Shown: positions 9,744 through 41,355 of the stretch, one piece after another
Layout of the letters: each line of letters opens with the position of its first letter
How positions within the stretch are numbered: the stretch's first letter is position 1
Assembly (NCBI GenBank): GCA_016861265.1
Contig: BOLA01000002.1
Location: 1 to 41,420 of the forward strand
Direction of reading: 5' to 3'
DNA: 41,420 bases
DNA from: Patescibacteria group bacterium
GTDB lineage: Bacteria > Patescibacteriota > Dojkabacteria > J137
Made by a program: the position numbers and the translations under genes
Notes under the pieces: generated by a model
The model's input: only the letters and a program-made list of their open reading frames with translations
Told to the model about the DNA's origin: nothing
Databases searched by the model: none

Positions 9744-9777
9744 TTTATAATCCTCTTATAATTTCTTTCTTTATTAA

Positions 9778-10707
9778 TCATGATGCCTTACTTACTAGGT
9801 GGATAAAAACGTTTTCAAGAGATGGTGTAATTATTCGGTTGTCAACTATTTGAATTTTATTATCAACCAAAAGTTTTTCTAAATCCTGGTACTGATTATC
9901 ATAATTTTGAAGAGCAACATTAAGCCTATCGCCGTACATTTGAACTTCAAAATCTGCTCCTGCTTTTATTAAGTTGTAAGCTTCTCGAATCGGTGAGCAG
10001 ACAATTTCTACAATTTGTGCTTTTAATGATGCCTTAACATTTTTAGGAGTATCCCAGCTTATGATCTCACCATTATTCATAAGTGCAATACGATTACATC
10101 TTTCTGCTTCATCTAGATAAGGCGTTGTCATAAAAATTGTTATTCCATCCTTTTGTAGATCGGATAATATTTTCCAAAAATCTCTTCGTGAAACCGGATC
10201 AACACCTGTCGTTGGCTCATCTAAAAATATTATCTTGGGCTTGTGTATTAGAGTGCAAGCCAATGCAAGCTTCTGTTTCATACCTCCTGAAAGTTTATCT
10301 GCAAGCCTGTCTCTAAATGGTGTTAATCTTGTAAATTCTAATAATTCATTTCGTCTGTCTTTAAAATTTTTCACTCCATGGATATCTGCAAAGAATTCAA
10401 TATTTTCATCAATAGTTAGATCACCATACAGAGAAAATTTTTGCGATAAGTATCCAATTTCATTCTTAATCAGGTTTTGTTGTGTCAACAGATCATAACC
10501 GAGAACCTTAGCATTACCTGAATCAGGTCTTAACAAGCCAGTTAACATTCTTATTGTAGTTGTCTTTCCTGCGCCGTCTGGTCCAACAAGTCCAAACATT
10601 TCCCCTTCAGAAACTGAATATGAAACTCCTTTTACCGCAGTAACTTTTCCGTAATTCCTTTTTAGGCTTTCTATAATTATTGCATTTTCCATTTTATGAT
10701 TCTCCAT
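9778..10707 (-). CDS. ABC transporter ATP-binding protein
   Basis: Walker A GPDGAGKTT, LSGGMKQ, IFLDEPTTG. Confidence 0.95.
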   Translation of the reverse strand: MENHKMENAIIIESLKRNYGKVTAVKGVSYSVSEGEMFGLVGPDGAGKTTTIRMLTGLLRPDSGNAKVLGYDLLTQQNLIKNEIGYLSQKFSLYGDLTIDENIEFFADIHGVKNFKDRRNELLEFTRLTPFRDRLADKLSGGMKQKLALACTLIHKPKIIFLDEPTTGVDPVSRRDFWKILSDLQKDGITIFMTTPYLDEAERCNRIALMNNGEIISWDTPKNVKASLKAQIVEIVCSPIREAYNLIKAGADFEVQMYGDRLNVALQNYDNQYQDLEKLLVDNKIQIVDNRIITPSLENVFIHLVSKAS

Positions 10708-25094: not shown

Positions 25095-26957
25095 TTACTT
25101 AGATTCATATACTTTCATTGATATTCCATCAAATTTTTTTGTCGTTTCCTCAACTCCTTTTAACTTTAATCTTTTCAGTGTCGACTTATAATTATGATAT
25201 TGAAAGTGATACTTGCATATCTTACTCATATACCTTGCTGGAATTACTCCGTGCAGATCAATCTTATCTTCTACCATTGCAGCAATATCTGTTTTCAATC
25301 CCATATCCTTTTCTGGTTCAGTGATTGGAAATATTTCATCAAGCAGAAAATAACTCGCATCCTTCGCTTTTAATCTTTCAGCAAATTCTTCGTATTCATC
25401 TTTTGATAATGCTTTCAATATGTTCTTTGCTTCTGTTTCAATTGGATGATTTGCAAGCTCCCTATCGTAATCTAATTTGAAAATAATATTTGCAAATTCC
25501 GAGAGTTCAGCTTTTATATCAGGTTCAAGATCCTTGAGGCTTTTATAGATAGTTAACTCACTTACCTTCTTTGCATTATCATTTCTAATTACATTAAATC
25601 TCCTGTCTTCATCATCCAGAAATATTGGATGTTCACTGTTCGAGAATAAAATGAAATTCATAAAGTTGCTTGTTTGAAATGTATCAACACCCTTTATTTC
25701 AATGCTCTGGTATGGAGCAGTAATTAAATCCTTTAACGATTCCTTGCGATGAAGATTTTCTTTAGCATTACCTGCACTAAAAACTTCATTGTATCCTCGC
25801 AGAAAACAATTCATATCAATCTTATTAAAGTTTTTTGCGATTCTGCTGCCATTCATTAACTGAGATTGTTTTTCACCAAATAGCGGCATTAATATTCTGA
25901 TAAATAATAAATCTTTGCCAATGCCCTGCACATTAGAAGTAATTAACCACGCTGTGTATGACTTTACTCTTGCCTGTAGAATGAATGCAATCCAGTTCAG
26001 AAATCTTTCAAGATATTCTTTCTGACCAAAGATGTTAATCATAATTTCATATATAACTTTACATCTCTTCTCTAATTCAGAAACAACTTGATTCAAGGCA
26101 AGGGGTAGTAAGGTAGTATAATCCTTTTTCATATACTCACTCTCTTCAAACAAATTATAATATTTATCATTCAAACCTCCGTGCAAGCCCGGATTAAATA
26201 TTATTTCTCTTCTCGGTAAATAAGAACGAATATTCGGATCAATGTTTTTCTGCATACAGTAATTATCAAAATCAGCTGCATTCTTGAATATGTAAAGAGG
26301 ACCATCACCATTATAACTTTCATACCCGATCATTGACGGACCACCAACAGACTCATTCCAGAATAATTTACTCTTTGCTGCATCTATCTCTTTACTATCC
26401 TGCCAATAGGTTTTGCTTTCTGATGAACAGAAAATATAATACTGCCCAACATCATTGATATCAATGAATGCATTATGTGTATGCGGATGTGTTCTCTTTG
26501 AATGATCGCAGTAAGGACAGAATATTTTTGTTTTACCTGAAATATTTCTAACCTTCTCCCTTGTAACACCATCTTCAAGAGTAACTTCATCATCAAGTGA
26601 AATTGTTATCTCTTCTTTTTTTGGTCTTCCTGGTTTTTTCTTTTTTATTTTTAATTTTTCATCGTCCCAAAAATTTAGAGATAAAAAGTTCATTGCTTTT
26701 TTTCTTCTTAATCTGTTTAGAGATGTATTCACAGTTATCTGGTAAATCCAGGTTGATAGTTTGGAATCTGCTCGAAAAGAATTGATGGAATTGAAAACTT
26801 TAATGAAAACATCCTGAGTAACTTCCTCGGCATCTTCATTATTGCCGGTCATACGAAAGCAAACGCTATAAACCATACGGGAATATTGGTCATATACATA
26901 TTTGTATATAAACTCATCACCGCTTTTAAGGTTTTCAATTATCTTTGCTTCTTCCAT
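25095..26957 (-). CDS. Chimeric ORF: ECF sigma-70 region 2 (about aa 1-100) fused in frame to the Zn-finger + D5/DUF5906-type SF3 helicase part of a phage/plasmid primase
   Basis: N-terminus EDAEEVTQDVFIKVF...FRADSKLSTWIYQITVNTSLNRLRR is sigma region 2; then CPYCDH...FC; ERFLNWIAFILQ, Walker A QGIGKD, YNEV (Walker B), NFMNFILFSN, DRRFNV. Confidence 0.8.
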   Translation of the reverse strand: MEEAKIIENLKSGDEFIYKYVYDQYSRMVYSVCFRMTGNNEDAEEVTQDVFIKVFNSINSFRADSKLSTWIYQITVNTSLNRLRRKKAMNFLSLNFWDDEKLKIKKKKPGRPKKEEITISLDDEVTLEDGVTREKVRNISGKTKIFCPYCDHSKRTHPHTHNAFIDINDVGQYYIFCSSESKTYWQDSKEIDAAKSKLFWNESVGGPSMIGYESYNGDGPLYIFKNAADFDNYCMQKNIDPNIRSYLPRREIIFNPGLHGGLNDKYYNLFEESEYMKKDYTTLLPLALNQVVSELEKRCKVIYEIMINIFGQKEYLERFLNWIAFILQARVKSYTAWLITSNVQGIGKDLLFIRILMPLFGEKQSQLMNGSRIAKNFNKIDMNCFLRGYNEVFSAGNAKENLHRKESLKDLITAPYQSIEIKGVDTFQTSNFMNFILFSNSEHPIFLDDEDRRFNVIRNDNAKKVSELTIYKSLKDLEPDIKAELSEFANIIFKLDYDRELANHPIETEAKNILKALSKDEYEEFAERLKAKDASYFLLDEIFPITEPEKDMGLKTDIAAMVEDKIDLHGVIPARYMSKICKYHFQYHNYKSTLKRLKLKGVEETTKKFDGISMKVYESK

Positions 26958-27073: not shown

Positions 27074-29350
27074 TCAAAACTTCGCCGTAAACCCAATAAT
27101 AGGCATAATTCCAAAATCATATCGCGGCTCTGTGGTTATTGTACCGTCCTTAGTGGTTTTGAATGAATATGAAACAACATTATCTCTGTTGTACACATTC
27201 CACAAATCGAGGTAAACGGAAAACGACCAGTTATCAAATACAAATTGTTTATCAATGCGAAGATCTAATTTGTGGTAATCGGGGTAATGTGCGGAATTAT
27301 TCTCGCCGTCAATTACATAAAAGATATTATCTATTTCAGTTACACCGGTTACCGGCGTGTACGGGTGGCCGGAAGCATATTGAAACTTTGCTCCAATCTG
27401 CCAGCCGGCTCCCATCTCAAGACCAAAAATCAAATTCAAAATGTGCGGTCTATCATATTCAAAGTCATACAGCGATGCTAATTCATAATCCCTTCTTTTA
27501 GAAATTGAATAAGAATAAGAAGCGCTTCCGACAAAACCATCAGTAAATTTCTTTTGAAGCGAGAATTCAATTCCTTGAGCATAACCGCTTCCGGTATTGA
27601 TTAATAGGTTCGAACTATCAGGATCTACTATCAAGCTCGAAAGCTCTTTATGATAAATTTCAATACCCGCTTTTGTATCCAATCCCAAACGGTATTCTAC
27701 TCCGGCAATGTAATGATCGGCGTAACTGCTGTTCAACAAAAGATTTCGTTCATCAGGTGCTATTTCATAACTTGCCGGCGATTGATAATACCTTCCCAGG
27801 GCAAAGTTCAGCCGCGTTCTTTCGGATAAATTGTACGATAGAGAAATTCGAGGACTAAAATTATTTTCATTTGTTAACGAAAAATAATCGTAACGCAATC
27901 CGGCAGAGATCACTAACGGATCAACAATACGGAAAGATGACTGCAGAAAAAACATCGACTTAAATTCAGCATCGGGTTGATAAGAAATTATACTTGCGGG
28001 AATAATTGTTCCCTCCCGGGTTGTATCGGCAGGGCTCCAGGATTCATTATGAGAATTGATCACTTTAAATTGTCCACCAAGTTTCAAATTTAATTTCGGT
28101 GAAAACTGATAGTTAAATTCAGACTTCAAACTGAATTCATCTTCGCGAATATCTTCGCCCAGTAAATCACGGTTTAATTCTGTACCTTGAATTGTATTCC
28201 AGCCGTTGCTTGTGTAAGAAGCCGTAACTAACGAGAATGCTTTTTCTGAAATGAGCGAGCGCCAATTAATTCCGATTGCAGCGCCGTAATCATCGCGTGT
28301 CAAATAGTCGAAACGATTCCAACTGTATGTTTCACCTTTCTCAATTCCGGTTCGTTCAATTTGATCTACATAATAAAATCCCACGAGACTTATTCTGTTG
28401 TCTTTATTCAAATCAAAAGAAGTTTTTCCGACTGCATCATAATAGTTCGGTGCTACAGGTTTGTCAAGAAGTGAAGTTATCAAATCGAAATAACCTCGTC
28501 TAAGAGAAAATACCATATTAGTATTTTCGGCAACAGGTCCATCCATCGTTATGCCGAAACCGGCTATATTTAAATTTGCATCGGTATTCATAGTTTCTTT
28601 GTTGCCCTCTTTTAGAGTCATATCAAAAACAGATGACATTTTAACTCCGTACTTAGCCGGGAAACCTCCGGTTAAGAAATCAACTTTTTGAAGCAGTGCT
28701 GGATTAACTATGCTTATTACACCCATTGATTCACCAGTTCTGGCAAAATGTATCGGGTTATATACTTCAATATTATCAAGCAGGGTTAGATTTTCTTCCG
28801 GGCTTCCGCCTCGTACAATTAATTGTGCGCTTTTTGTGCCTGCTGTTGCAACGCCTGGCATTGACTGCATAACTCTAAAAATGTCTTCCGCAGAACCAGG
28901 CGATCTTCTTATTTCTTCGGGTGATATTGTTCTGAAACTGACTGGATTTTCATCCGGATTTGCAAAATAATCCGCTGTTACTTTAACCTCGTCCATTTCC
29001 ATAGCAGCAGAATTAAGTTCAAAATTTACCGATTGATTTCTATTAGGATTTATGTTTAACTCTGTTATCACTGAAGATAAATAACCAATCATTGAAACTT
29101 TTAAAGAATATCTCCCAGGTACCACATCTTTTATAACGTAATAACCATTCTCATCACACGCCGAACCCTGATTTGTTCCATCAATTAATATGTTTGCACC
29201 TGGAAGTGGTTGTTTAGTTACAGCATCTCTTACTTCACCGGAAATTATTCCGGTTTTACTTTGGCTATTTATTTCATTTGTAAGGAATAGAAATACTGAA
29301 ATCGTTATTGCAATTAAGATTTTGGCGATGGCAAATGATTTTTTGTACAA
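27074..29350 (-). CDS. TonB-dependent receptor with an N-terminal carboxypeptidase-regulatory-like domain
   Basis: GEVRDAVTKQPLPGANI; plug RVMQSMPGV...LIVRGGSPEENLTLLDNIEVYNPIHF; KLDLRIDK...NVYNRDN; C-terminal F; TTG start. Confidence 0.9.
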   Translation of the reverse strand: MYKKSFAIAKILIAITISVFLFLTNEINSQSKTGIISGEVRDAVTKQPLPGANILIDGTNQGSACDENGYYVIKDVVPGRYSLKVSMIGYLSSVITELNINPNRNQSVNFELNSAAMEMDEVKVTADYFANPDENPVSFRTISPEEIRRSPGSAEDIFRVMQSMPGVATAGTKSAQLIVRGGSPEENLTLLDNIEVYNPIHFARTGESMGVISIVNPALLQKVDFLTGGFPAKYGVKMSSVFDMTLKEGNKETMNTDANLNIAGFGITMDGPVAENTNMVFSLRRGYFDLITSLLDKPVAPNYYDAVGKTSFDLNKDNRISLVGFYYVDQIERTGIEKGETYSWNRFDYLTRDDYGAAIGINWRSLISEKAFSLVTASYTSNGWNTIQGTELNRDLLGEDIREDEFSLKSEFNYQFSPKLNLKLGGQFKVINSHNESWSPADTTREGTIIPASIISYQPDAEFKSMFFLQSSFRIVDPLVISAGLRYDYFSLTNENNFSPRISLSYNLSERTRLNFALGRYYQSPASYEIAPDERNLLLNSSYADHYIAGVEYRLGLDTKAGIEIYHKELSSLIVDPDSSNLLINTGSGYAQGIEFSLQKKFTDGFVGSASYSYSISKRRDYELASLYDFEYDRPHILNLIFGLEMGAGWQIGAKFQYASGHPYTPVTGVTEIDNIFYVIDGENNSAHYPDYHKLDLRIDKQFVFDNWSFSVYLDLWNVYNRDNVVSYSFKTTKDGTITTEPRYDFGIMPIIGFTAKF

Positions 29351-29462: not shown

Positions 29463-30857
29463 TCAAAAAGCATGATCAACAAACATCTGCATGTAAAATC
29501 CTTCCTTGCTGTAAGCACCATCCATTCTTAAAATAAGGTTGTTCATAAAAATTCTTATACCGCCGCCGGCGCTCCATTTCATATCTGTGTGTAAAGTGGA
29601 GATGTTCCATTCGGGTGCAACTCTACCGGCTTCTGCAAATACAGCTAATTGAAGCCAGTGTACGTTTAATTTTTCAGTAACCGACCATAAATCAAATGGA
29701 TTCCAGTCAATTATATGCCTGTATTCGGCTCCATAATAAATTGCTGCTCTATCATTAAATCGTCCTTCGTAAAAAGCACGAAGCCTGTATCTCCCACCAA
29801 GATACGCGCCAGTATAAGGTGGCGGACGATGATATTGTTTGATTTCATTACCCTCCGGATCTAGTCCAACAACATCATAGCTGTCCCATGTCAGAGTGTT
29901 TACTGTCCAGAAATCAAATGCTAATACTTTTGGCAGCGAATTTTTATCGCAAAAAATTTCGTGAAGCGGTAAATACCATCTTAGATCTGTTTCTACAACA
30001 CTCCAGGGTGCCATAGTATCAAACCATCCGAAGTCTCTTCTAAAAGCAATTTTCTGAACGCTCCCGCGTGTTGGATTTACATAATAATCTGTATTCTCTC
30101 TTGTTAACGCAAATTCAATTCCGTTAGTAGCAAAGGCAACTCGTTTTCTATAAAATGGTTTTATATCTATAAAAGTTCTTCCACTTATAAATGGGTTCCA
30201 GTGTGTACCGCCCATCTCACCAGATTTTAAAATTCCGTTTTCTAATTTTGGTGAAAAGTAAACTTCATCTTTGCCATGCCCGATCGGAAGAAGAAATCTA
30301 AATTTAAGCTCATACCATTGGTCATTCCCGCTCACTTCCATATAATCATTTTTATCTGACTCGTTACTACCAGCCCGAAGTTTAGGATCATTTTCAATTA
30401 AAGTAGTTGGCGGATCTTTATAAACATTTAGTACACCGAAATATCCTCCTAATATATCGGGCGCGATGTAAAGCCTTGGATAAAATGGCAAATAGAATTC
30501 TTTGATTTGAATGAATCCGTATTTTGTTCCATTAGTACTAATTAATCCACCCATGTAAAGGGACATATTTTTTTGTGATAAACCCTGAACTCCCACAAAC
30601 CCGCCTGCAGCCCAACCAAATATTTCGCTATATAATGCAAACGGTAAAGCTGAGATTGTAATTTCATCCTTTTTTTGATTAAGTGAATCTTCAATAACTT
30701 CTTGCTTTAAATCATCATTTAGAATAACTGCTTCATTTGATTTGACAATATCTGATTGACTTTTAACTTCGACAGAAAAAAGTGAAATTAACAATAAGAG
30801 CAAGAAAACATTTTTTATTAGTCTCATATTAGCAATCAGTTTTATCATCATTTTCAT
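29463..30857 (-). CDS. Omp85 (BamA/TamA-family) barrel protein without POTRA domains
   Basis: Signal peptide; GGRYRLRAFYEGRFNDRAAIYYGAEYR, AGGGIRIF, LRMDGA, C-terminal ...VDHAF. Confidence 0.72.
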   Translation of the reverse strand: MKMMIKLIANMRLIKNVFLLLLLISLFSVEVKSQSDIVKSNEAVILNDDLKQEVIEDSLNQKKDEITISALPFALYSEIFGWAAGGFVGVQGLSQKNMSLYMGGLISTNGTKYGFIQIKEFYLPFYPRLYIAPDILGGYFGVLNVYKDPPTTLIENDPKLRAGSNESDKNDYMEVSGNDQWYELKFRFLLPIGHGKDEVYFSPKLENGILKSGEMGGTHWNPFISGRTFIDIKPFYRKRVAFATNGIEFALTRENTDYYVNPTRGSVQKIAFRRDFGWFDTMAPWSVVETDLRWYLPLHEIFCDKNSLPKVLAFDFWTVNTLTWDSYDVVGLDPEGNEIKQYHRPPPYTGAYLGGRYRLRAFYEGRFNDRAAIYYGAEYRHIIDWNPFDLWSVTEKLNVHWLQLAVFAEAGRVAPEWNISTLHTDMKWSAGGGIRIFMNNLILRMDGAYSKEGFYMQMFVDHAF

Positions 30858-30864
30858 TAATTAT

Positions 30865-32208
30865 TTAGTCTAAATATTCCAGTTCTTCGATTAAATGATT
30901 TGTTCCATTGGTATCCAAGTGCGTAACTGGTGATTCATTCATCAGTTTCCGCAAAGTATTTTTGAGTTTCATCATCTGAATAAAAAGATCATGTTCAGGA
31001 ACAATATTGGGCGAGTGCATAGGACTTTTGAAAAATACTGACATCCATTCTTGAATTCCGCTCATGTGGCTTCTGAGAGCAAGGTCGGCAAATAAAATTA
31101 AATCGAGTACAATCGGAGCTGCTAAGATAGAATCACGACATAGGAAATTTATTTTTAATTCCATTGGATAACCGAGCCAACCGAAAATATCTATGTTATC
31201 CCATCCCTCTTTATTATCCCCGCGAGGAGGATAATAATTTATTCTTACTTTATGATAGTATTCTGAATAAAGATCTTTATATAATTCTGGTTGTAAAATA
31301 GAATCGAGTACAGAGAGTTTGCTTTCTTCTTTGGTTTTGAATGATTCTGGATCGTCTAGAACCTCTCCGTCTCTATTGCCAAGAATGTTATTTGAAAACC
31401 ATCCATTTAAGCCTAACAGTCTCATTTTTAACATAGGTGCAATAACTGTTTTTATAAGTGTTTGCCCAGTCTTAAAATCTTTACCAGCTATAGGGACATT
31501 CATTTCTTTAGAAAACTCAACCATCGCCGGAATATCCACACTTAAGTTTGGCGAACCATTTATATAAGCCGCTTCTTCAGCAATCGATGCATATGCATAA
31601 AGCATGCTTGGAGAAATATCCGGATCATTTTGAATCATACCTTCAATAAATGATTCGGTAGATTGATGAACTGCTTTCTGTTCAATAAATATTTCTGTAC
31701 TTCCCGCCCAGATTACAACGACACGTTCGAGTGAATTCATTTCTTTAAATAACTGAATATCTTCTCTTAATTGCATCATAAGTTCAAATTTATTTTTTCC
31801 ACTCTTGACATATTCCCCATTCAATCGTTTTACATAATTTTGATCGAATACGCCGCGCATCGGTACAATATTCTGTAATTCATCTGAAACAATTTTCAGA
31901 TCTTTTTCATTAAGAACTTTTGCGTACTGTGCAGCTTCTAAACAATTTTCGTTTCGAATATCCCATCCCCCGAAGACTAAATCGTCTATAGACGTTAGTG
32001 GGACAAAGTCTTTTATTAATGGAAAATTATTATCACTTCTCTTTCCAGACCGGATGGTTCCCATTTGTGATAGTGACCCGATAGGTTTTGCCAATCCTTT
32101 TCGAATGGCAAAAACTCCGGCTAAAAAAGTTGTAGATACTGCGCCATTTAAACCGACGATTAGTACTCCTAATTTTCCATTCGGTTTTTTAATTTCATAT
32201 AATTCCAT
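30865..32208 (-). CDS. ino1: myo-inositol-1-phosphate synthase (Bacteroidota-type)
   Basis: GVLIVGLNGAVSTT, VFGGWDI, YINGSPN, GKDFKTGQTL, NILGNRDG, GDNKEGWD, CRDSILAAPIVLDL. Confidence 0.95.
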   Translation of the reverse strand: MELYEIKKPNGKLGVLIVGLNGAVSTTFLAGVFAIRKGLAKPIGSLSQMGTIRSGKRSDNNFPLIKDFVPLTSIDDLVFGGWDIRNENCLEAAQYAKVLNEKDLKIVSDELQNIVPMRGVFDQNYVKRLNGEYVKSGKNKFELMMQLREDIQLFKEMNSLERVVVIWAGSTEIFIEQKAVHQSTESFIEGMIQNDPDISPSMLYAYASIAEEAAYINGSPNLSVDIPAMVEFSKEMNVPIAGKDFKTGQTLIKTVIAPMLKMRLLGLNGWFSNNILGNRDGEVLDDPESFKTKEESKLSVLDSILQPELYKDLYSEYYHKVRINYYPPRGDNKEGWDNIDIFGWLGYPMELKINFLCRDSILAAPIVLDLILFADLALRSHMSGIQEWMSVFFKSPMHSPNIVPEHDLFIQMMKLKNTLRKLMNESPVTHLDTNGTNHLIEELEYLD

Positions 32209-32255: not shown

Positions 32256-32957
32256 TTAATTAAATTCTTTAAGAATAGGTGGCAATTCTTTTATGGATTT
32301 AATTATTTTATCTGCACTACCAATCTCATCTGGATTATTCCACCCCTTATTGTTAATCCAGATTGTATCACAACCCAGCAATTTGGCAGGTGCAATATCA
32401 TTACTATAAGAATCTCCAATCACAATGGCATCGGTTGGATTTACGCCCAATTCACTTAGAGCTGCCTCAAAAATTTTTCCATCAGGTTTTCTGATTCCTA
32501 TAACAGTCGAGTCAACAATTGAAGTAAAATATTTTTTTAGAGAAAGTTCTTTTAATACTGCTTCAACATTGCCGTAATAATTTGATACTAGTCCCAGTAG
32601 ATAACTTTGTTCCAGAGATTCAATTATTATTTTAGATGTGCTTACATTCTTAATTACTGATTTATGACAATATTCCTTAAGTTCACTTATGATCAGGCTA
32701 TAAATTGATGATAAATAAAACTTGTTTTGGAGATATTCCATTTGATATTTAAGCTGCGTTTCAAATGTTTGCCTCAAATTAAAATCTGTTTTGATAATCC
32801 CTGCACATTTTTTTTCAGAATAGATAAATGCTTCTCTAAAAATTTCTTTAGAAATAGGAATTTGAAAATGGTTATATGCTTCCCAAAATTTTTCACTCCA
32901 ATGGATTCCATCAGTATCAAGTGTTCCACCAAAATCAAATAAAAGTGCTTTTTTCAT
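32256..32957 (-). CDS. HAD-superfamily hydrolase
   Basis: LLFDFGGTLD, VSNYYGN, RKPDGKIF, IGDSYSNDI. Confidence 0.9.
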   Translation of the reverse strand: MKKALLFDFGGTLDTDGIHWSEKFWEAYNHFQIPISKEIFREAFIYSEKKCAGIIKTDFNLRQTFETQLKYQMEYLQNKFYLSSIYSLIISELKEYCHKSVIKNVSTSKIIIESLEQSYLLGLVSNYYGNVEAVLKELSLKKYFTSIVDSTVIGIRKPDGKIFEAALSELGVNPTDAIVIGDSYSNDIAPAKLLGCDTIWINNKGWNNPDEIGSADKIIKSIKELPPILKEFN

Positions 32958-33960
32958 AATTTACTTCAGTTAATAATTCTTGATTTGTTTTTTTTCCGCT
33001 TAATGCAATAAGGATAAGTCCGATTAATATCCAGAAAAGTTCTCGTATTCTGTTTACAAGGCCTACATAAATTCCAAGTGAGGAAGCTATATTTAAAGAC
33101 TCTAAAACCAGCACAAGCCCGCCCTCGCGTGATCCCAATTCTAAAGGCATAAAGAAAAATAGATTTATTATAAAAGCGGAAACAGCATTGATATACAATG
33201 CCTCATAAAAAGTAATATCGATTCCAATTGCCCGGAGAATAAATAAATATTCAAGTGAGCCGATAATGCGCGAAATAATTTCACTAAAGAGCGCTAAATA
33301 AAAATTCAGTTTTCGATTTAAATACAGATCGGTTATCTGGTCATCGATTATTTGTATTGATTCTTCTTTCTTAGAAAGCGGGCCGGTAACTCTGTTTATG
33401 AATGGGATTTTTAAAGTAATGTTAAATAAAGATTTTAATATCCCTTTTTTGTGGCGTGTAATAAAAAAATATGTTATTACTAAAAAGAAAACCAACGCAA
33501 TTATCAAGGATACCTTTGTTGCCATTGTAAGAGTTAGAGAAATGAGTACAAGAAAAATAATTAGTATCCAGAACATAAAAGACGAGAGAAAGTGAATCAT
33601 TGAATACAGGATAGTAGAAGAAACCGCCCTGCTTGTGCCCAGTTGTCCTTTTAGTTCTCCAATACGATATGGTTCACCACCCAGCCCAACAAATGGCGTA
33701 ATGTAATTGATTGCAAATCCGCTAATGGTTAAGGAAAATATTTTATGGAAAAGAATATTTTGCTTATTGTTTCCAATTATAAATCGCCAGGCAAGTGCGT
33801 TAAAAAAATAGACGAAAACCCATACACCAATTACGGGAATAAAATACCATCCGGTTTTATGAAGGTTGGATAAAATATTATCTAAACCAAAATCCCAAAC
33901 CAGGTATGTAAATATTGTAATACCAACAACAAATAAAATTATTTTAGACTTTTTACTCAT
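32935..33960 (-). CDS. UPF0104 / lysylphosphatidylglycerol-synthase-TM family flippase-like membrane protein
   Basis: GFAINYITPFVGLGGEPYR, PLELGSREGG, RIRELFW; multiple TM helices. Confidence 0.85.
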   Translation of the reverse strand: MSKKSKIILFVVGITIFTYLVWDFGLDNILSNLHKTGWYFIPVIGVWVFVYFFNALAWRFIIGNNKQNILFHKIFSLTISGFAINYITPFVGLGGEPYRIGELKGQLGTSRAVSSTILYSMIHFLSSFMFWILIIFLVLISLTLTMATKVSLIIALVFFLVITYFFITRHKKGILKSLFNITLKIPFINRVTGPLSKKEESIQIIDDQITDLYLNRKLNFYLALFSEIISRIIGSLEYLFILRAIGIDITFYEALYINAVSAFIINLFFFMPLELGSREGGLVLVLESLNIASSLGIYVGLVNRIRELFWILIGLILIALSGKKTNQELLTEVNYEKSTFI

Positions 33961-34972
33961 TGATTAATTCTATTGTCTTTTGTGTTTGTGATGATTCATA
34001 ACATTTTTCTAATAAATAAACTGTATTCAAGGCTTCTTTCAATCCACCCTTAATAAAATTTTTGTTCTGCATATTGTTAGCGAATTCAAAAAATAAATTA
34101 ACATAGAGTCCGGTATAATGAGATTTATCAGACACGTTCGGAACAGCAATTATTTCATCATTACCATTTTTGCTTTTGACTAAATATTCTTCTCCACTGT
34201 AATGCAGACTTCCTTCTTTCGAAATTAATTTGGCTTCATTCTTTCTGGAAATAGAGGCCCAGCTGAGATTAATTTGAATTATTCCTCGCTCAAACTCTAA
34301 AATTACTTGCGAAGTGTCTTCTACCTGGAAATTATTATGCGCCAGATTATGATTAATAGCTGTAACTTTATTCGGTTGCCCCAACAACCAGTTTGCTAGG
34401 TAGAGATAATGAAATCCCGTATCGGATAAAATGCCGCCGCCGCTAATTTCTTTATTCAAACGCCAGGGAGTTGTGTCTGCATTAAGTCCCGGATCAGCTC
34501 CGGTTCTAAACACATTTAATTGAATAAATATATTAGCAATATCTAACTGTTCAATAAAAGATTTAAAGTGTTTCCATAAAGAAGAATATTTATACTGATG
34601 ACAGGGTATAAATAGAATATTCTTTCCGTTAAGATTTGAATAAAGTTCTTTTGCTTCTGCATAAGAAATGGTGAACGGTTTTTCACAAATAATATGAATA
34701 CCTTTATCAACAGCCCACTCTATTATTTCTTTGTGATATTTGGGAGGCGTAGTTATATCAATAAAATCAACTTTATTATTTGAGTACATTTCGTTTAATG
34801 ATTCATAAAAATTTATACTACTATACTCTTTCCTACATCTCTCCCTTATATTAATATCTACTTCTACCGCAGAAGTTATATCAATACTTTTTTGCAATTC
34901 TTCTGATTGAAAAGCTTCAAGATGATTAGTTCTTGCTATTTTGCCAAAACCAACTATAGCGCCTTTAATCAT
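33953..34972 (-). CDS. Gfo/Idh/MocA-family NAD(P)-dependent oxidoreductase (inositol dehydrogenase-like); likely start is the ATG at 34972
   Basis: GAIVGFGKIA Rossmann motif, ITTPPKYH, ICEKPF, GGGILSDTGFHYL. Confidence 0.88.
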   Translation of the reverse strand: MIKGAIVGFGKIARTNHLEAFQSEELQKSIDITSAVEVDINIRERCRKEYSSINFYESLNEMYSNNKVDFIDITTPPKYHKEIIEWAVDKGIHIICEKPFTISYAEAKELYSNLNGKNILFIPCHQYKYSSLWKHFKSFIEQLDIANIFIQLNVFRTGADPGLNADTTPWRLNKEISGGGILSDTGFHYLYLANWLLGQPNKVTAINHNLAHNNFQVEDTSQVILEFERGIIQINLSWASISRKNEAKLISKEGSLHYSGEEYLVKSKNGNDEIIAVPNVSDKSHYTGLYVNLFFEFANNMQNKNFIKGGLKEALNTVYLLEKCYESSQTQKTIELINE

Positions 34973-35891
34973 TTGAAAATTCCTTTTTACCTTTTGTAAA
35001 CTCAAATAAATATTTGTGAATTTTTTCTTCCTTAATTACAAAGTAGATCAGAACCAGATTGAGTGCTATTAATTCGAAAAGGAAATAGTAAAGGATGTTA
35101 CCCCAAAAGACTGTAATGAACAGAACAATCATTCTTGTATTGGTGGTTAAAATATTCTGATACTTAATCATTGGTTTGTTAAGTTTACGGTATTCTTCAG
35201 TAAGCCAATGCGGAATGAACTCTTTGAAATTATCTTCAACATACTTGTATAAGACCCTTACATGCTTTGCAAGTAAATGCTGTTGATGAGTATAATTTAT
35301 ATAAACCCGAAGAAGGAATTTCCTAAAAGGTGTTTTTATCCAGAATAGTTTAGAATAAGTTTCTTTAACCTCGTTAAGATCATCGATATCTTTATTCTTA
35401 CTTTGAGTAAAGTACAAATAAAAGATTCTGTAGTAATCAGCCATTGCACTTTGAAAAGAATGACTTATTCCCGAAATCAATGCAATCAGCAATATAAATG
35501 GAGTTCCACCTTCTATAATAAACCTTGCTGACATATGTAAGTAGATACTAATAAACCATAAATTACCGGCAACCCCATCAAATATTCTTCCGTAGCGGGA
35601 AAAAGTATTGGTCATACGGGCAAGCTGTCCATCAGCCCCATCTAATGCCTCAGCAATAATTAAGAACAAAACGCCAAGGAGATTTATTGTTGTGTTTTGA
35701 TAGAAGAATAAATGACCGGCAGCAACACCAAAGATTATACTGATAAAAGTAACTGCATTTGGTGACAACCCTATCGCCTTAGATACAACTGCTATTCTAT
35801 ATCCAACTTTACGGTAGAAAATTCTGTCGAGAAATTCTTCCGTATCTGCTGATTTATAGGTTGATTCAATATTTGATTTGTTCAGCGACAT
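34965..35891 (-). CDS. CDP-alcohol phosphatidyltransferase family protein
   Basis: SPNAVT; LDGADGQLAR...YGRIFDGVAGN signature; HSFQSAMADYYR. Confidence 0.9.
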   Translation of the reverse strand: MSLNKSNIESTYKSADTEEFLDRIFYRKVGYRIAVVSKAIGLSPNAVTFISIIFGVAAGHLFFYQNTTINLLGVLFLIIAEALDGADGQLARMTNTFSRYGRIFDGVAGNLWFISIYLHMSARFIIEGGTPFILLIALISGISHSFQSAMADYYRIFYLYFTQSKNKDIDDLNEVKETYSKLFWIKTPFRKFLLRVYINYTHQQHLLAKHVRVLYKYVEDNFKEFIPHWLTEEYRKLNKPMIKYQNILTTNTRMIVLFITVFWGNILYYFLFELIALNLVLIYFVIKEEKIHKYLFEFTKGKKEFSND

Positions 35892-37218
35892 AAGTAAACG
35901 CTTCCTCCATTATCTGAATTCCTTCTTCAGCAATTTCTTTGCTTACAATCAAGGGCGGATAAATGCGAATATCTGCATTATATCCCATTACTATCAGTCC
36001 CCGTTTTAAACATTCCTGAAATACCATTTCAGTATATTTTTTATCTAATTTAACTTTAGAGCCTTTATCTTGTACGAGTTCAATCCCTATCATCAGACCT
36101 TTACCACGAACATCCCCGATAATCGGAATTCTCTCTTTCATTTCATTGAACTTATCCAGCATAAATGCACCAACCGTAGCTGAATTTTCAACAAGCCCTT
36201 CTTCGATTATTGTTTTTAAAGTTGCGTAAGCAGCAGTAGATGCCAATGGGTTTCCACCAAAGCTGGATGAACTGCCGCTTGGATTTCCAAACGGTTTGGC
36301 AAAAATTATTTCTTTACGAGACATCACACCTGTCATTGGAAAACCGCCGCCAAATCCTTTGCCTATCGTTATTATATCTGGTACAATGTCCTCGTGCTGC
36401 GTTCCAAACATTTTACCTGTTCTGCCAAAACCGGTTATCATTTCATCACAGATCAATAATGCTCCGATTTCATCGGTAAGTTTTCGCAATTCCTTTAAAA
36501 AACCTTGCGCAGGAACTACATTCCCAGCAGTCCCTTGAATTGGCTCTACTATGATTGCAGCTATATTGTTAGTTGTTTCATATCTAATTTTTTTTCTTAT
36601 GTGATCAACACATTCCCAATTACATCCCGGAAACGTTCTGTTAAATTCGCAATGCCTGCAATCAGCATAAGGAGTGTTGTAAATTCCCGCTGGTAAAGGA
36701 CCAAGACCAAATTTGAAATCATCTCCAAGCAAACCGAGTACACCGACTGTTTTACCATGGAAGCCATTCCAGAAACCAATGAACTCAGTTTTTTTCGTGT
36801 ACGATTTTGCCATTCTTAATGCAGCTTCAACTGCCTCTGCGCCTCCACTATAAAATTGACTCCATTTCAAATCACCAATTGCAATTTCAGAAAGAAGTTT
36901 GGTGAGTTTGACCCTGTTTTGAGTAGTAAAACTTCCAACGTGAATATTATCGAGCTGTTCCTTCATCAGTCTGTTGTAAACAGGATGATTATAGCCAAGA
37001 CTAGCAACGCCAACGCCAACAAAGAAATCAATATATCTATCACCATCAACATCCTGAACTATACATCCCTCACCTTTATCAATAGCAATTTTAGATCGGG
37101 TTGCAATTGTTTGAATGCCCGGGGCTATGTAATTTATTTCATCATTAAAGAGCTCCAATGATTTTGGACCCGGTATTTCAGTTTTAACATCTGCATATTT
37201 TGTATTTGAAATTATCAT
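35866..37218 (-). CDS. Class III PLP-dependent aminotransferase (GabT/ArgD-like fold)
   Basis: SGGAEAVEAALR, GFHGKT, IVEPIQGTAG, DEMITGFGRTG, PDIITIGKGFGGG, GDVRGKGLMIGIEL. Confidence 0.92.
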   Translation of the reverse strand: MIISNTKYADVKTEIPGPKSLELFNDEINYIAPGIQTIATRSKIAIDKGEGCIVQDVDGDRYIDFFVGVGVASLGYNHPVYNRLMKEQLDNIHVGSFTTQNRVKLTKLLSEIAIGDLKWSQFYSGGAEAVEAALRMAKSYTKKTEFIGFWNGFHGKTVGVLGLLGDDFKFGLGPLPAGIYNTPYADCRHCEFNRTFPGCNWECVDHIRKKIRYETTNNIAAIIVEPIQGTAGNVVPAQGFLKELRKLTDEIGALLICDEMITGFGRTGKMFGTQHEDIVPDIITIGKGFGGGFPMTGVMSRKEIIFAKPFGNPSGSSSSFGGNPLASTAAYATLKTIIEEGLVENSATVGAFMLDKFNEMKERIPIIGDVRGKGLMIGIELVQDKGSKVKLDKKYTEMVFQECLKRGLIVMGYNADIRIYPPLIVSKEIAEEGIQIMEEAFTYVAEQIKY

Positions 37219-37247: not shown

Positions 37248-38084
37248 TTATGATTTAAGTAGTATAGTCTCTTCGAAATATTTTGCCTTTTGAAAAATTA
37301 ATTGTGCAATTTCTTTACTCGATTGTTCACGTATTGGAGCAAAGCTTGGCCAATCATTAATATCTATAATTGAAATCGAACCATTGGGAGAGATAATTGC
37401 ATCTCCTCCAAAAATATCCAGCCCAAGGATTTCAGCAGACCTGGATGTAAATTCAAATAATTGTTCTTTATCAAATGGAGTATGATTAATTCCATTTAGA
37501 TAGTACCAATGGAAAAAGCTGCTATTTTTAATTGAATAAAATTTGATAACATCGCCCTCCAGATGTTCTTGAAGAACAGCATACTCAATACCTCTTTTAT
37601 TAAATTCCCGGAAAATATTTTTTCTTTCTTCTTCTGAATAAACCAAAGTCACATCTTCTCTATGAACAGCGTGAACATCGCCCCGCTTGACCCAAATCTT
37701 CCTTGCATTAAAATCGTCGAAAGAAATTCCGTTTATATTATCAACAGGCAACACATAACTTCTGGGGAAGGGAATTTTATTTTGTGATAAAATATTTACC
37801 ATATTCATACGGAAGCATTTTATTCCAGCTTGTGGAGTATTTATTATAACTCTACCTTCATTTCCTAATTTTAATAATTCATTCAAAGCTCTTTCTCCTT
37901 GTGCCATTGAAAAAATAACGGGTTCATTTATTTCGATGGAACCAAGATCCTGCTCCTCATAAATTTTTACTATAACGCCCATATTGTTAAGATGTTCAGC
38001 GGTCCTCATCAAAATAAGAGTATCATTTTCAATATGATTTGGAGAGTATAGCGATTGTCTTTTAATACCAGCTATTGTTTGCAT
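37248..38084 (-). CDS. ATP-grasp fold protein (amide ligase or ITPK1-like inositol phosphate kinase)
   Basis: WVKRGD, VLQEHLEGDVIKFY, LDIFGGDAII, IIDINDWPSF: ATP-grasp Lys, QE and D/E-x-N motifs. Confidence 0.75.
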   Translation of the reverse strand: MQTIAGIKRQSLYSPNHIENDTLILMRTAEHLNNMGVIVKIYEEQDLGSIEINEPVIFSMAQGERALNELLKLGNEGRVIINTPQAGIKCFRMNMVNILSQNKIPFPRSYVLPVDNINGISFDDFNARKIWVKRGDVHAVHREDVTLVYSEEERKNIFREFNKRGIEYAVLQEHLEGDVIKFYSIKNSSFFHWYYLNGINHTPFDKEQLFEFTSRSAEILGLDIFGGDAIISPNGSISIIDINDWPSFAPIREQSSKEIAQLIFQKAKYFEETILLKS

Positions 38085-38101: not shown

Positions 38102-39064
38102 TTAGAAAATAGAAAGATTAACGTACCTATCAGGGTTATCCTTTATATCTTTTATTAATTTATTAAGATCATTTATTAATGAAGTAATTTGCCTGTAACT
38201 TTCCGTATTATTGATAAGTCCGCCCAGCATAGTTGAATCACTATTTAATGACTTAGAAGCATTCTTTATATTTTCAGTAAAGTCATTAAGATTACTGTAA
38301 AGGGGATCATTTTTAATTAATTTCCCTACAGTACCCTTGCCTGTTTGGATCGAATCGGTAATCATTTTCAAATTCATAATTAATAGTGATAGATTATCAT
38401 ATAATTCATTACTATAAACTAGATTGCCAATCGTTCCATCACTTTTATTAAGAGAAGAAGAGAAGGATTCTAAATTTGCGAGTGAAGCGTTTAATCTATC
38501 TGCAGCGGATGAATTGAACACAAGCTTACCAATACTGCCTTTACCCTGTGAAATAGTATCAGTTATTGTTTTAAGGTCATCAAAAATCTTGTTAATGTTT
38601 TCAATTGCCGGTTCAATTTTTTGAGTAATGCTCTCAAAACTAACGTATTCTCTCACGGGTAAAAATTCACCTTCGGAAAGCGGTCTTTCAGTTGGATTGC
38701 CTAGAGAAACATTTATCAACTTATCACCAAGCAATCCTAAAGTTGAAATTTTTGCATACGAATTTACTGTGATTTGTGATGCATACTTTTCAAGTATTGC
38801 CAATCTTAGCTTAACAAGATTTTGATCATTTACCGATGCAAATTCTATTTTATCAATATGACCAATTTTTAAGCCGCCTAGTGAGACAGAGCCTCCCTCT
38901 GTTAATCCTTGCGTATCATTCATTAAAATGTTTAAATGGTATGTGTTAGAAAAGTAATTTCCTTCAGAACCAACCAGGAAAATGAAAAGAAAAAATATTA
39001 GCAAACCTATAATAACAGTGATGCCTACTTTCAGTTTAGAATAATTTGAGTTCTTATTTAACAT
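38102..39064 (-). CDS. mlaD: MCE/MlaD-family lipid-binding protein with a helical extension
   Basis: N-terminal TM; GLTEGGSVSLGGLKIGHI; STLGLLGDKLINVSLG; GTIGNL/GTVGKL repeats; DIKDNPDRYVNLSIF. Confidence 0.88.
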   Translation of the reverse strand: MLNKNSNYSKLKVGITVIIGLLIFFLFIFLVGSEGNYFSNTYHLNILMNDTQGLTEGGSVSLGGLKIGHIDKIEFASVNDQNLVKLRLAILEKYASQITVNSYAKISTLGLLGDKLINVSLGNPTERPLSEGEFLPVREYVSFESITQKIEPAIENINKIFDDLKTITDTISQGKGSIGKLVFNSSAADRLNASLANLESFSSSLNKSDGTIGNLVYSNELYDNLSLLIMNLKMITDSIQTGKGTVGKLIKNDPLYSNLNDFTENIKNASKSLNSDSTMLGGLINNTESYRQITSLINDLNKLIKDIKDNPDRYVNLSIF

Positions 39065-39833
39065 TGACTAATCCATATTGATTGGTATAACTATCCAACA
39101 AGTAATTTCCTCTATTAATTTGATAAAAAAATTTCTGAACAAAATTGTTAGATGACTGTAATATTTCATCAACTGTACCTGATTCTACAATCCTGCCATT
39201 ATTAATCACGATCAACTTATCGCCAATTGTAATGGCATCATTTAATATGTGTGTTACCAGTATTGATGTTGTTCCACTCTTCTTTAGTTTTGAAATTAAA
39301 TGCAGAATTGATTCAGCATTGATAGGGTCTAATCCGGTTGTTGGTTCATCAAACAAAATTACTTTTGGATCAATAGCTAGTGCGCGAGCAATTGCAACTC
39401 TTTTTTTCATTCCACCACTGAGTTCTTCAGGAAAAAAGTTCTCAGTTCCCTCTAAATTCACAAATGAGAGTAACTCTTCAACTTTGTATTTTAACTCTAT
39501 ATCAGATAATTTTTTCTTATCAGGAAGGAAGTAAAGAATATTCTCCGCAACTGTTAATGAATCAAACAGTGCGTTATTTTGAAAAACAATTCCGATATTT
39601 TTTCTTATTCGAGTAAGTTCTTCTTCAGTTAATTTGTTGATGTTTATCCCATCAAATAAAACTTCGCCATAATCGGGTTTCCAAAGAGCCAGAATAATTT
39701 TTAAGATTGAACTTTTCCCTGCACCACTTGGTCCAACAATAACAGAGGTTATATTTCTCTCAATATTTAATGAAACATTATCCAGAATAATTTTATCAGA
39801 AAGTAAAAGTGTTATGTTTTTAAATGAAATCAT
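39054..39833 (-). CDS. mlaF: MlaF/Mkl-type ABC ATP-binding protein
   Basis: GPSGAGKS, FQNNALFDSLTV, PEELSGGMKKRVAIARA, FDEPTTGLDP. Confidence 0.9.
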   Translation of the reverse strand: MISFKNITLLLSDKIILDNVSLNIERNITSVIVGPSGAGKSSILKIILALWKPDYGEVLFDGININKLTEEELTRIRKNIGIVFQNNALFDSLTVAENILYFLPDKKKLSDIELKYKVEELLSFVNLEGTENFFPEELSGGMKKRVAIARALAIDPKVILFDEPTTGLDPINAESILHLISKLKKSGTTSILVTHILNDAITIGDKLIVINNGRIVESGTVDEILQSSNNFVQKFFYQINRGNYLLDSYTNQYGLVNVK

Positions 39834-39839
39834 ATTTGG

Positions 39840-40595
39840 TTACAAAACTTCCCATACTATTTTTGTGAAAATGAAATCAATTATCAAAACGATTACAGAA
39901 GTCAAAACAACTGCATTAATAGTATTTTTTCCCAGTCCTGAAGTGCCACCTTTGGTAGTTAAACCCAAATAGCAACTTATAGTTGAAATAAAAAACGCGA
40001 AGAAAAATGGTTTTAGGAATCCAACAAAAAGATCTTTCATCTTTAATGCTCCAATGGCAGTTTTCCAGAATGAGGAGAAATCAACATGAAATGTCTGGTT
40101 AGCAACGAGCATCCCACCAAGAATTCCCGTAATGTCTGCAATAAGAGTCAACGGTAAAAAAATTAACAGTGCGGCTACCGTTCTTGGAATAACTAATTTC
40201 TGAATTGGATTTGCACCAAATGCTTTTAGTGCATCAATCTGATCACTTAACTGCATCGCGCCTAATTCAGAAGTATTTTTCGCCCCGGTTCTTGCTGCAA
40301 GTAATAAACCGGTAATTATTGGACCAAGTTCTCTAACCATTCCCAACGACATTGTCCTGCTGATCAATGAAGTTGCACCGAAAAGTTTTAATTGATGGCC
40401 AGTTTCTATCGCCAATATTACCCCTGTAAACAACCCACCCAAGAAAATAATCAGGAATGCTTTGCTTCCGATTAAATACATTTCTTGAATTGTTTCTTGC
40501 CAATTATCTTTTATCGAACCGATATTGACAAAAATATCACGGATTAAAACCGTGAATCCTTGCAGCTCTCCAACAATATTTATTAGCCGAGGCAT
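39840..40595 (-). CDS. mlaE: MlaE-family ABC permease
   Basis: VRELGPIITGLLLAARTGA...ELGAMQLSDQIDALKAFGANPIQKLVIPR. Confidence 0.92.
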   Translation of the reverse strand: MPRLINIVGELQGFTVLIRDIFVNIGSIKDNWQETIQEMYLIGSKAFLIIFLGGLFTGVILAIETGHQLKLFGATSLISRTMSLGMVRELGPIITGLLLAARTGAKNTSELGAMQLSDQIDALKAFGANPIQKLVIPRTVAALLIFLPLTLIADITGILGGMLVANQTFHVDFSSFWKTAIGALKMKDLFVGFLKPFFFAFFISTISCYLGLTTKGGTSGLGKNTINAVVLTSVIVLIIDFIFTKIVWEVL

Positions 40596-40596
40596 G

Positions 40597-41355
40597 TTAT
40601 TTACACTCTTTACTGTCAGAAAGATTACTAGTTAAAAATTCTTCCGCTTTTTCAATATCAGAGAGATGATCAACATCAATAATTTTTGAAAAAGGAAATG
40701 CATAAAATCGAAAATCTTTTTGAATAAGAAACCTCAGAAAGTTTCTCAATCTAACAACTCCTGAGTTTACAGCTTCATCAATTTCTTTTTGAATATCTGT
40801 TTTGAACAAATACAAACCGCCTGTTATAAATTCATATCCGTCATTCGAATCTTTAAAATTTGTTATTCTAGTGTTCTCATCTATATCGGCATACACCGGT
40901 TTTTCATCATCAATAAAGTCTGTTACGGCAATTAAACCATCGGCATCTTTTAAGTTCATTCCATAAGTCACAAACGATTTAAACTCAGATTCAAGAAATA
41001 CCGAATCGGCAGTTGTCAGTAGAAATGGAGCTGACAAAAATCTATTTAATTGATATAAGCTGTGTAGAGAGCTTGGGGTAGATTTTACAATTAAATTCAC
41101 TGGTTTACTTCTATTATACTTTAAAAGGAAAGATTCGAGTTCTTCTGACTTTTCATTGATGATACATGTTATTGAAGAATTACCAGTGTTTCTTATAATA
41201 TCTATTATACGTTGTATGATTGGAATGCCATTTATCTCTACTAAAGGTTTTGGCACATTAATCCCTTCTTCTTTTAATCTAAGCCCTTCGCCAGCCGCTA
41301 TTATTGCTGCATCCATTTCATTTTTCTTTTTTAATAAATTTAATACATTGATCAT
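40597..41355 (-). CDS. NTP transferase (IPCT/LicC-like cytidylyltransferase candidate)
   Basis: AAIIAAGEGLRL...PKPLVEING, TTADSVF, IDVDHLSDI. Confidence 0.88.
   Translation of the reverse strand: MINVLNLLKKKNEMDAAIIAAGEGLRLKEEGINVPKPLVEINGIPIIQRIIDIIRNTGNSSITCIINEKSEELESFLLKYNRSKPVNLIVKSTPSSLHSLYQLNRFLSAPFLLTTADSVFLESEFKSFVTYGMNLKDADGLIAVTDFIDDEKPVYADIDENTRITNFKDSNDGYEFITGGLYLFKTDIQKEIDEAVNSGVVRLRNFLRFLIQKDFRFYAFPFSKIIDVDHLSDIEKAEEFLTSNLSDSKECK

Follow-up and report, generated by a model that had tools for sequence, protein, structure and literature searches.

The ATP-grasp protein of 278 residues encoded in the operon described here is a core enzyme of the CDP-inositol pathway for inositol-lipid head groups, the 'alternative' or Bacteroides vulgatus-type pathway, which is itself predicted. 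The operon lies on contig BOLA01000002.1 of a Patescibacteria group bacterium (assembly GCA_016861265.1), of which positions 1 to 41,420 were analysed and are referred to as the window (Table 1). The gene context suggests that the enzyme phosphorylates an inositol intermediate and does not act as a ligase. A phosphotransferase is favoured by this context because the enzyme is fused to cytidylyltransferases in other genomes, is co-conserved with a HAD phosphatase, is independent of the aminotransferase beside it in the window and is present in Tannerella forsythia, where the lipid product is plain. Kinase chemistry of any kind is considered probable. Our preferred reading of the reaction, held tentatively, is that inositol monophosphate or CDP-inositol is phosphorylated and that the HAD phosphatase later removes that phosphate.

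The twelve proteins of the window were mapped by tblastn onto 80 related loci, and the counts given here and below refer to the 62 loci with full flanks unless all 80 are named. A CDP-alcohol phosphotransferase is encoded within 2.5 kb downstream of the ATP-grasp gene in 60 loci, and a HAD phosphatase is likewise present in 60. The NTP transferase is encoded within 3 kb upstream in 50 loci and farther upstream, behind mla genes, in nine more. Inositol-phosphate synthase (MIPS) is present in 41 loci, and neither MIPS nor a PfkB kinase is found nearby in 12. The window operon holds the NTP transferase, the CDP-alcohol phosphotransferase, the HAD phosphatase and MIPS, as do most of the 62 loci, and the ATP-grasp gene sits in a CDP-alcohol phosphotransferase head-group operon in all 80.

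Over-long proteins among the 150 best cluster representatives were checked against Pfam for fusions. Six representatives of 50%-identity clusters combine an NTP_transferase domain with the ATP-grasp domain; P0186 is a HAD, NTP_transferase and ATP-grasp fusion and P0222 an NTP_transferase, ATP-grasp and CDP-OH_P_transf fusion. A fusion of the phosphotransferase with the HAD protein has been described in Prevotella veroralis (Heaver et al., PMC9246714). These fusions therefore chain all of the soluble core enzymes to one another and to the membrane transferase. The locus of P0186 contains the partners found in the window and lacks the mla genes. Operon membership, fusions and distribution of the family are established by these comparisons, as are its fold and conserved catalytic residues by those that follow. 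In a Parabacteroides metagenome-assembled genome (MAG), the ATP-grasp enzyme and the CDP-alcohol phosphotransferase form a single ORF of 596 residues (L077:7388-9200), which may be a genuine fusion or may stem from misassembly.

The open reading frame (ORF) begins with ATG, and its translation includes AVLQEHLEGDVIKFYSIKNSS and LGLDIFGGDAIISPNGSISIIDINDWPSFAPIRE. The motifs quoted in a preliminary description of this gene (QEHLEGDVIKFY, IFGGDAII and IIDINDWPSF) are all present in the translation, and their residues are conserved across 104 diverse relatives of 28-56% identity, which rules out a chance resemblance. In the alignment of these relatives, K133, K181, D228, D241, N243, P246 and the WPSF block show little or no variation. 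The predicted ATP/Mg site is made up of K133, K181, a hinge at Q172-E173, D228, D241 and N243, and the family signature reads WxKRGDxHA...DV, GDxVKFY, GGDxI and IDxNDWPSFAP. Using hhalign, K133 aligns with K157 of ITPK1 and H138 with H162, and the conserved Lys, Asp and Asn residues align with K157 and D295/N297 of ITPK1 and with their equivalents in RimK. The segment IFGGDAII...IIDINDWPSF aligns with LFGIDIII...VIDINAFPGY of ITPK1 and with VDLNYLPSF of ITPK4. The D-x-N motif thus seen in ITPK1 and ITPK4 contrasts with the E-x-N of RimK ('MEVNASPG') and PsnB ('LELNASAMF'), so the distinction drawn in the preliminary description between ITPK-type and RimK-type enzymes holds in the alignments. 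After the ATP lysine, where RimK has a Gly-rich loop ('EGTQGIG'), the alignment shows 'RGDVHAVHRED', with KRGDVHAVHRED aligned to KLVEGTQGIGVV of RimK; the RGDxHA motif at this place is specific to the family. Both hallmarks of RimK and LysX, the E-x-N Mg site and the Gly-rich loop, are therefore absent from the window protein. Beyond the basic residues expected at ATP, only R9, R134, R164 and R252 are conserved, compared with ten conserved acidic residues. The protein does not contain a membrane segment.

An AlphaFold2 model built from a 25-sequence alignment shows a confident three-domain ATP-grasp structure (pLDDT 92.9, pTM 0.88), and this fold together with the conserved ATP-binding lysines and Mg ligands places the ORF product in the ATP-grasp superfamily. 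A Foldseek search of the Protein Data Bank (PDB) returned 528 matches at E<=0.001, and the best 50 are all ATP-grasp proteins. ArgX ranks first (3.5e-13), and ArgX, maize ITPK1, DcsG, PsnB, Ddl, RimK and PPIP5K2 all score at an E-value of about 1e-12 with TM-scores of 0.6-0.74. The window protein does not match any Pfam or NCBIfam model at the cut-off, and PF05770 (Ins134_P3_kin) does not match it at E<=0.01. Among 25 close relatives, all Pfam and NCBIfam matches are below threshold and are spread over ATP-grasp_3, ATPgrasp_ST, Ins134_P3_kin, TTL and RimK; PF05770 is matched in four of them, with a best E-value of 0.0048. NCBIfam matches are limited to RimK, MptN and LysX, with TIGR00768 (RimK) reaching 20.7 bits over the C-terminal 58 residues only, below its cut-off of 143.4. 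A family profile was built from the 104 relatives, and its best match among PDB sequences is the graspetide ligase PsnB (3.9e-8), followed by Arabidopsis ITPK4 (1.1e-5), human ITPK1 (4e-4), RimK (5e-4), Entamoeba ITPK1 (2e-3) and GshB (0.04). Comparison of the profile by hhalign with targets identical to 2odt_X (human ITPK1) and 5zct_A (E. coli RimK) gave 86.2% (E 4.9e-6) and 81.6% (E 1.1e-5), respectively, which is a tie. Sequence and fold do not separate a kinase from a ligase here. By these scores the family appears roughly equidistant from the RimK-type ligases and the ITPK kinases, and it is a conserved, uncharacterised branch within the ATP-grasp superfamily.

The ITPK1-like tail named in the preliminary description is borne out, as the C-terminal block is nearer to ITPK1 and ITPK4 than to RimK (ITPK profile E-values of 1e-5 to 4e-4, D-x-N motif). 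Membership of the ITPK family does not follow from this, given the PF05770 result, the equal closeness of RimK, LysX and Ddl and the ligase at the head of the profile matches. The comparison of folds proposed there, with ITPK1 on one side and RimK and Ddl on the other, confirms an ATP-grasp enzyme and scores kinase and ligase folds equally. Of the proposal that the protein is an inositol phosphate kinase and not an amide ligase, the kinase part is favoured by gene context, while the profile and fold are equally close to the ligases. The N-terminal half looks like RimK and PsnB and the C-terminal catalytic block like the ITPKs, with 'PSF' as in ITPK4.

The family shares with the ITPKs (PF05770; human ITPK1 2odt/2q7d, Arabidopsis ITPK4 7pup and maize ITPK1 7tn5) a three-domain ATP-grasp fold (Foldseek E 8.6e-13, TM-score of about 0.7), the D-x-N Mg site within the block FG-x-D-x-I...IDxN-x-[FWL]-P-[GS]-[YF], the aligned ATP lysines and the inositol phosphate setting of the gene. 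It differs in that HMMER aligns only its C-terminal 50-95 residues, that it has few conserved basic residues for a polyphosphate pocket, and that it is bacterial, 270-290 residues long and in every case accompanied by a cytidylyltransferase and a CDP-alcohol phosphotransferase. ITPK4 (7pup) carries an N-terminal HAD-like domain (PMC7614388), which parallels the HAD, NTP-transferase and ATP-grasp fusion of P0186. The HAD phosphatase of the operon does not match this domain of AtITPK4 in sequence, and a kinship between the two was dropped. With RimK, LysX, ArgX, MptN and PsnB the family shares the fold, the size and the N-terminal 'pre-ATP-grasp' region, including a RimK-like ...G..viNsp.ai..c.R... 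segment. It is set apart from these enzymes by D-x-N in place of E-x-N, by RGDxHA in place of the Gly-rich loop and by surroundings without peptide or amino-acid genes.

An unlikely alternative, although the one that fares best, is a carboxylate-amine or carboxylate-hydroxyl ligase working through an acyl-phosphate, which could place an amino acid, for example, on the amine of an inosamine, on an inositol hydroxyl or on another intermediate. Most ATP-grasp enzymes are ligases, and the PsnB match, the equal scores of RimK and ITPK1, the NCBIfam matches and the first rank of ArgX all point in this direction. In the window, the aminotransferase directly downstream could supply an amine nucleophile, and a gene similar to the MprF flippase is part of the operon. 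However, the aminotransferase is absent from 52 of the complete loci; it is found in 10, always together with the Gfo/Idh/MocA gene. Comparison of 20 ATP-grasp proteins from clusters with this pair and 69 from clusters lacking it identified 53 positions at which one and the same residue is >=90% conserved in either set, and no position conserved to this level in both sets differs in residue. Three residues (S59, F106 and G221) are conserved only in proteins from clusters with the pair. The ATP-grasp tree tracks taxonomy, with clusters that lack the pair branching from within groups of Ignavibacteria clusters that carry it. As the pair occurs in only 10 of the 62 loci and the conserved residues are unchanged, an inosamine amide ligase is unlikely, and use of an amine made by the adjoining aminotransferase was rejected as the function of the family. 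The core cluster also does not offer a carboxylate or amine partner, many loci retain the ATP-grasp gene but have no flippase-like gene, and the fusion partners are a nucleotidyltransferase and a phosphotransferase rather than amino-acid enzymes. The D-x-N site and the missing Gly-rich loop are further points against a ligase. Plain inositol-phosphoceramides are produced by T. forsythia, B. vulgatus and P. veroralis (PMC4587543, PMC9246714). In T. forsythia, the inositol lipids are unmodified inositol-phosphodihydroceramides only (PMC4587543), so there is no amide or ester product and nothing left that a ligase could have added.

A plain cyclitol kinase, which would convert free myo-inositol (or scyllo-inosamine in the window) to the monophosphate used by the cytidylyltransferase as the first step of a Kennedy-type route, is quite unlikely. 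Kinases are commonly fused to nucleotidyltransferases and the family includes fusions of this design, and the HAD phosphatase, dehydrogenase and aminotransferase of the window could yield free inosamine that requires re-phosphorylation. The 12 loci with neither MIPS nor PfkB nearby also agree with this function. The idea is attractive with respect to T. forsythia, where the enzyme would be the 'missing inositol kinase'. This bacterium is without MIPS and IMPase, obtains inositol solely from the medium and has no recognisable inositol kinase (Megson et al., PMC4587543), yet it has the ATP-grasp gene. In strain ATCC 43037 (L050), the genes for the NTP transferase, the ATP-grasp protein (WP_014226239.1, annotated as 'hypothetical protein'), the phosphotransferase and the HAD phosphatase are consecutive, and MIPS is not present at this locus. 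Here the NTP transferase is encoded by an ORF (9182-9952) immediately upstream of the ATP-grasp gene, though an IPCT was reported as missing in PMC4587543, and this ORF is preceded by an Asp-Al_Ex/TrkA_C transporter gene (7527-9197) whose product is a possible inositol importer.

The plain kinase is weakened by nine Runella and Dyadobacter genomes in which a PfkB kinase occupies the exact MIPS slot, after the HAD gene and before DUF4833, and MIPS is missing (13680-14660 in L031, and the same position in L040, L041, L043, L049, L063, L064, L067 and L078). Among proteins of solved structure, this PfkB is closest to the pyrophosphate-dependent myo-inositol kinase TM0415 (E 2e-31) and the myo-inositol 3-kinase TK2285 (PMC5931981). 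This arrangement suggests that inositol scavenged by these soil bacteria is the source of the lipid head group. Inositol phosphate can thus come from MIPS or from PfkB, and the ATP-grasp and HAD genes are kept both ways, including in the 41 loci that already make inositol phosphate by MIPS; a plain inositol kinase is disfavoured as a result. T. forsythia also keeps the HAD phosphatase though it has no MIPS product to dephosphorylate, and there are no residue changes between the putative inositol-using and inosamine-using enzymes.

A kinase acting on a lipid alcohol, with dihydroceramide or another lipid phosphorylated, converted to a CDP-lipid by the NTP transferase and coupled to inositol phosphate by the phosphotransferase, in the manner of PIP/AIP synthases, before the HAD enzyme removes the remaining phosphate, would explain the constant HAD gene, the coexistence with PfkB, the inositol phosphate acceptors used by the best NCBIfam matches of the phosphotransferase (AIPS, PIPS and DIPPS) and the absence of inositol glycerolipid reported for T. 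forsythia (PMC4587543), but it is very improbable, as it is opposed by the lack of any known ATP-grasp or RmlA/GlmU-type nucleotidyltransferase that acts on a lipid, by an ATP-grasp protein without a membrane segment, by the capped small-molecule type of the HAD phosphatase and by the presence of the family in Ignavibacteriota and Chloroflexota, taxa whose lipid anchor already carries a phosphate.

For the preferred phosphorylation of an inositol intermediate, we infer the type of reaction, its substrate and the sequence in which the enzymes act as follows. ATP-Mg would be held by K133, K181, D228, D241 and N243, and a soluble inositol intermediate already bearing one phosphate would be phosphorylated. 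The substrate would be either the inositol monophosphate made by MIPS or PfkB or the CDP-inositol that the neighbouring cytidylyltransferase makes from it. Once doubly phosphorylated, the intermediate would be handled by the cytidylyltransferase and the CDP-alcohol phosphotransferase. Removal of the extra phosphate by the HAD phosphatase may precede CDP activation, in a 3-to-1 'phosphate walk' whose net effect would be to shift the phosphate from the MIPS-made position to a different one, or it may follow transfer to the lipid, in parallel with PGP, PIP and DIPP synthesis. The aminotransferase and dehydrogenase of the window would be accessory enzymes, probably for amination of the head group at a different stage, and export of the lipid would fall to MlaFED together with the flippase-like protein. 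No other scheme was found in which each of the four constant enzymes would have a function in clusters with MIPS, with PfkB and with neither. The preliminary description had placed the gene beside inositol-phosphate synthase; the two are in the same minus-strand operon and are not adjacent, as MIPS lies five genes downstream. Its proposal that the enzyme acts on the inositol monophosphate made by MIPS fits the context and the replacement of MIPS by PfkB, with CDP-inositol named here as the other possible substrate. Its suggestion of lipid-independent inositol polyphosphate synthesis is not supported, given the head-group operons found at all 80 loci and the few conserved basic residues outside the ATP binders.

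Several points weigh against this scheme. The top profile match is to a ligase, the N-terminal half resembles the RimK and MptN models, ITPK1 and RimK are tied by hhalign, Foldseek likewise leaves ITPK1 level with RimK, ArgX and Ddl, and the superfamily as a whole consists mostly of ligases. The exchange of MIPS for PfkB forms one clade in the tree, and as a single evolutionary event it carries limited weight. We know of no bacterial cytidylyltransferase that accepts inositol bisphosphate and, to our knowledge, no CDP-inositol kinase has been described. T. forsythia would need a further inositol kinase. The CDP-inositol/BEPIS route of Rhodothermus marinus is reported to need only MIPS, IPCT and BEPIS (Jorge et al. 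2015, as cited in PMC4587543). A more far-reaching version is rather unlikely: the family would be the bacterial, possibly archaeal, counterpart of the ITPKs; an intermediate at the level of inositol bisphosphate, for example Ins(1,3)P2 or a CDP-inositol phosphate, would be obligatory in a third, hitherto undescribed inositol-lipid route with the HAD enzyme as partner; and in the window the head group would be aminated to give a phospho-inosamine lipid exported by MlaFED.

The putative 'alternative' inositol-lipid cluster was described in Bacteroides (Phocaeicola) vulgatus and Prevotella and consists of an NTP transferase, a CDP-alcohol phosphatidyltransferase, a HAD hydrolase and MIPS (Heaver et al. 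2022, PMC9246714). The loci studied here share this gene set, including the LPG-synthase-like and CarboxypepD_reg/DUF5686 genes, and the Bacteroidales relatives are found in loci of exactly that type. The window differs by the addition of the Mla transport genes and the dehydrogenase/aminotransferase pair. BVU_RS13095, 13105 and 13115 are named in PMC9246714, and the ATP-grasp gene is unmentioned. Judging by the spacing of the locus tags, the B. vulgatus ATP-grasp gene is probably the unnamed gene between BVU_RS13095 and 13105. Full-text searches of the literature did not find a paper that ties an ATP-grasp enzyme to CDP-inositol or to the inositol sphingolipids of Bacteroidetes. The proposed scheme resembles the PgsA/Pgp, PIPS/PIP phosphatase (BT_1523/BT_1525) and DIPPS/phosphatase systems in that a product with an extra phosphate would be made and then treated by a dedicated phosphatase. 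It differs in the entry of that phosphate, which is brought in on the acceptor in those systems and would be installed here by the ATP-grasp kinase.

Variation in the content of related loci was also observed. A Muribaculaceae MAG (L036:10867-14484) has Bacteroides thetaiotaomicron-type genes between the ATP-grasp gene and the 'alternative' phosphotransferase gene, encoding a PgpA-like phosphatase, a short CDP-OH phosphotransferase, a PAP2_3 protein and an acyltransferase, so that a single locus houses the two proposed routes to inositol lipids. Three Bacteroidota MAGs (L019, L022 and L025) have a second CDP-alcohol phosphotransferase homologue approximately 4 kb upstream of the ATP-grasp gene (near 5858-6043). 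A DUF2141 protein is encoded between the NTP transferase and the ATP-grasp enzyme in two MAGs labelled Hyphomicrobiales (L028:6202-6654 and L072:7498-7944).

A search of 5.8 billion proteins identified 1,141 relatives of the window protein, mainly from Ignavibacteriota and including MROS_1263 of Melioribacter roseus, which are named 'hypothetical' or 'RimK-type ligase-like'. A profile search of a 50%-identity library returned 1,207 clusters, 424 of these below 1e-30. Scanning one genome per species, at least 595 species carry relatives with the motif [IV]DxN[DA]WPSF. Carriers include Ignavibacteria, Kapabacteria, Runella, Dyadobacter and Chitinophagaceae, and among the Bacteroidales T. forsythia, Parabacteroides, Muribaculaceae, Prevotellaceae, Dysgonomonas and Bacteroides graminisolvens, with scattered occurrences in Chloroflexota, Myxococcota and Bacillota MAGs. 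In M. roseus, the ATP-grasp gene is tandemly duplicated (L001:9171-10004 and L001:10001-10843), with the extra upstream copy 52% identical to the window protein, and the two copies may differ in substrate; the window has one copy.

The genes of the window operon follow one another in the order of Table 1, with intergenic gaps or overlaps of at most 47 nt. In other genomes, the NTP transferase gene is directly upstream of the ATP-grasp gene or fused with it, and the mlaEFD genes (38102..40595) are inserted between the two in the Ignavibacteria version of the operon. The Omp85-family gene at the end of the row has a tblastn match in only two of the related loci (L017 and L034). The next gene (27074-29350, minus strand) encodes a TonB-dependent receptor whose N-terminal domain is CarboxypepD_reg-like. 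CarboxypepD_reg/DUF5686 proteins flank the cluster in Bacteroidales and Cytophagales too, and are homologues of BT_1527 according to Heaver et al. A 620-residue ORF (25095-26957, minus strand) has the unusual pairing of a sigma-70 region-2 domain with DUF5906 and separates the outer-membrane genes of the operon from a region that holds two COX1-like ORFs (15698-16963 and 18971-20593). Sphingolipid genes were not found among the ten large ORFs scanned elsewhere in the window.

Table 1. Genes of the minus-strand operon in the window, in order of transcription
Feature	Position	Strand	Remarks
NTP transferase, IPCT-like cytidylyltransferase candidate	40597..41355	-	First gene of the operon; family-model scans, tblastn
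mlaE	39840-40595	-	Lipid-transport ABC system
mlaF	39054-39833	-	Lipid-transport ABC system
mlaD	38102-39064	-	Lipid-transport ABC system
Orphan ATP-grasp enzyme, 278 aa	37248..38084	-	ORF, alignments, model
Class-III aminotransferase	35866..37218	-	Accessory; always paired with the Gfo/Idh/MocA gene
CDP-alcohol phosphotransferase, AIPS/DIPPS/PIPS-like	34965..35891	-	Most constant neighbour of the ATP-grasp family
Gfo/Idh/MocA oxidoreductase, IolG-like	33953..35005	-	Accessory partner of the aminotransferase
LPG_synthase_TM / HpnL-like, flippase-like membrane protein	32935..33960	-	
HAD-IA phosphatase, capped small-molecule type	32256..32957	-	Co-conserved with the ATP-grasp enzyme
MIPS	30865..32208	-	
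Omp85-family outer-membrane protein	29463..30857	-	Last gene of the packed row

The ATP-grasp gene is as constant in the 'alternative' cluster as the phosphotransferase gene, yet it was left out of the published model. Its product has been overlooked in a pathway that is predicted to make inositol lipids in hundreds of bacteria from soil, the gut and the mouth. The inositol lipids and sphingolipids of Bacteroides, Prevotella, Parabacteroides and Tannerella influence host interaction, and the 'alternative' pathway used by many of these bacteria has never been reconstituted. Members of the family occur in at least 595 species and fall into about 1,200 clusters at 50% identity, Pfam and NCBIfam have no model for them, and cultured hosts open to genetics are available, so the question is directly testable, by enzyme assay and by deletion in gut Bacteroidales. 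Assigning the reaction would complete or correct the pathway, could show the position of the head-group phosphate, and would also test the existence of ITPK-like inositol phosphate kinases in bacteria.

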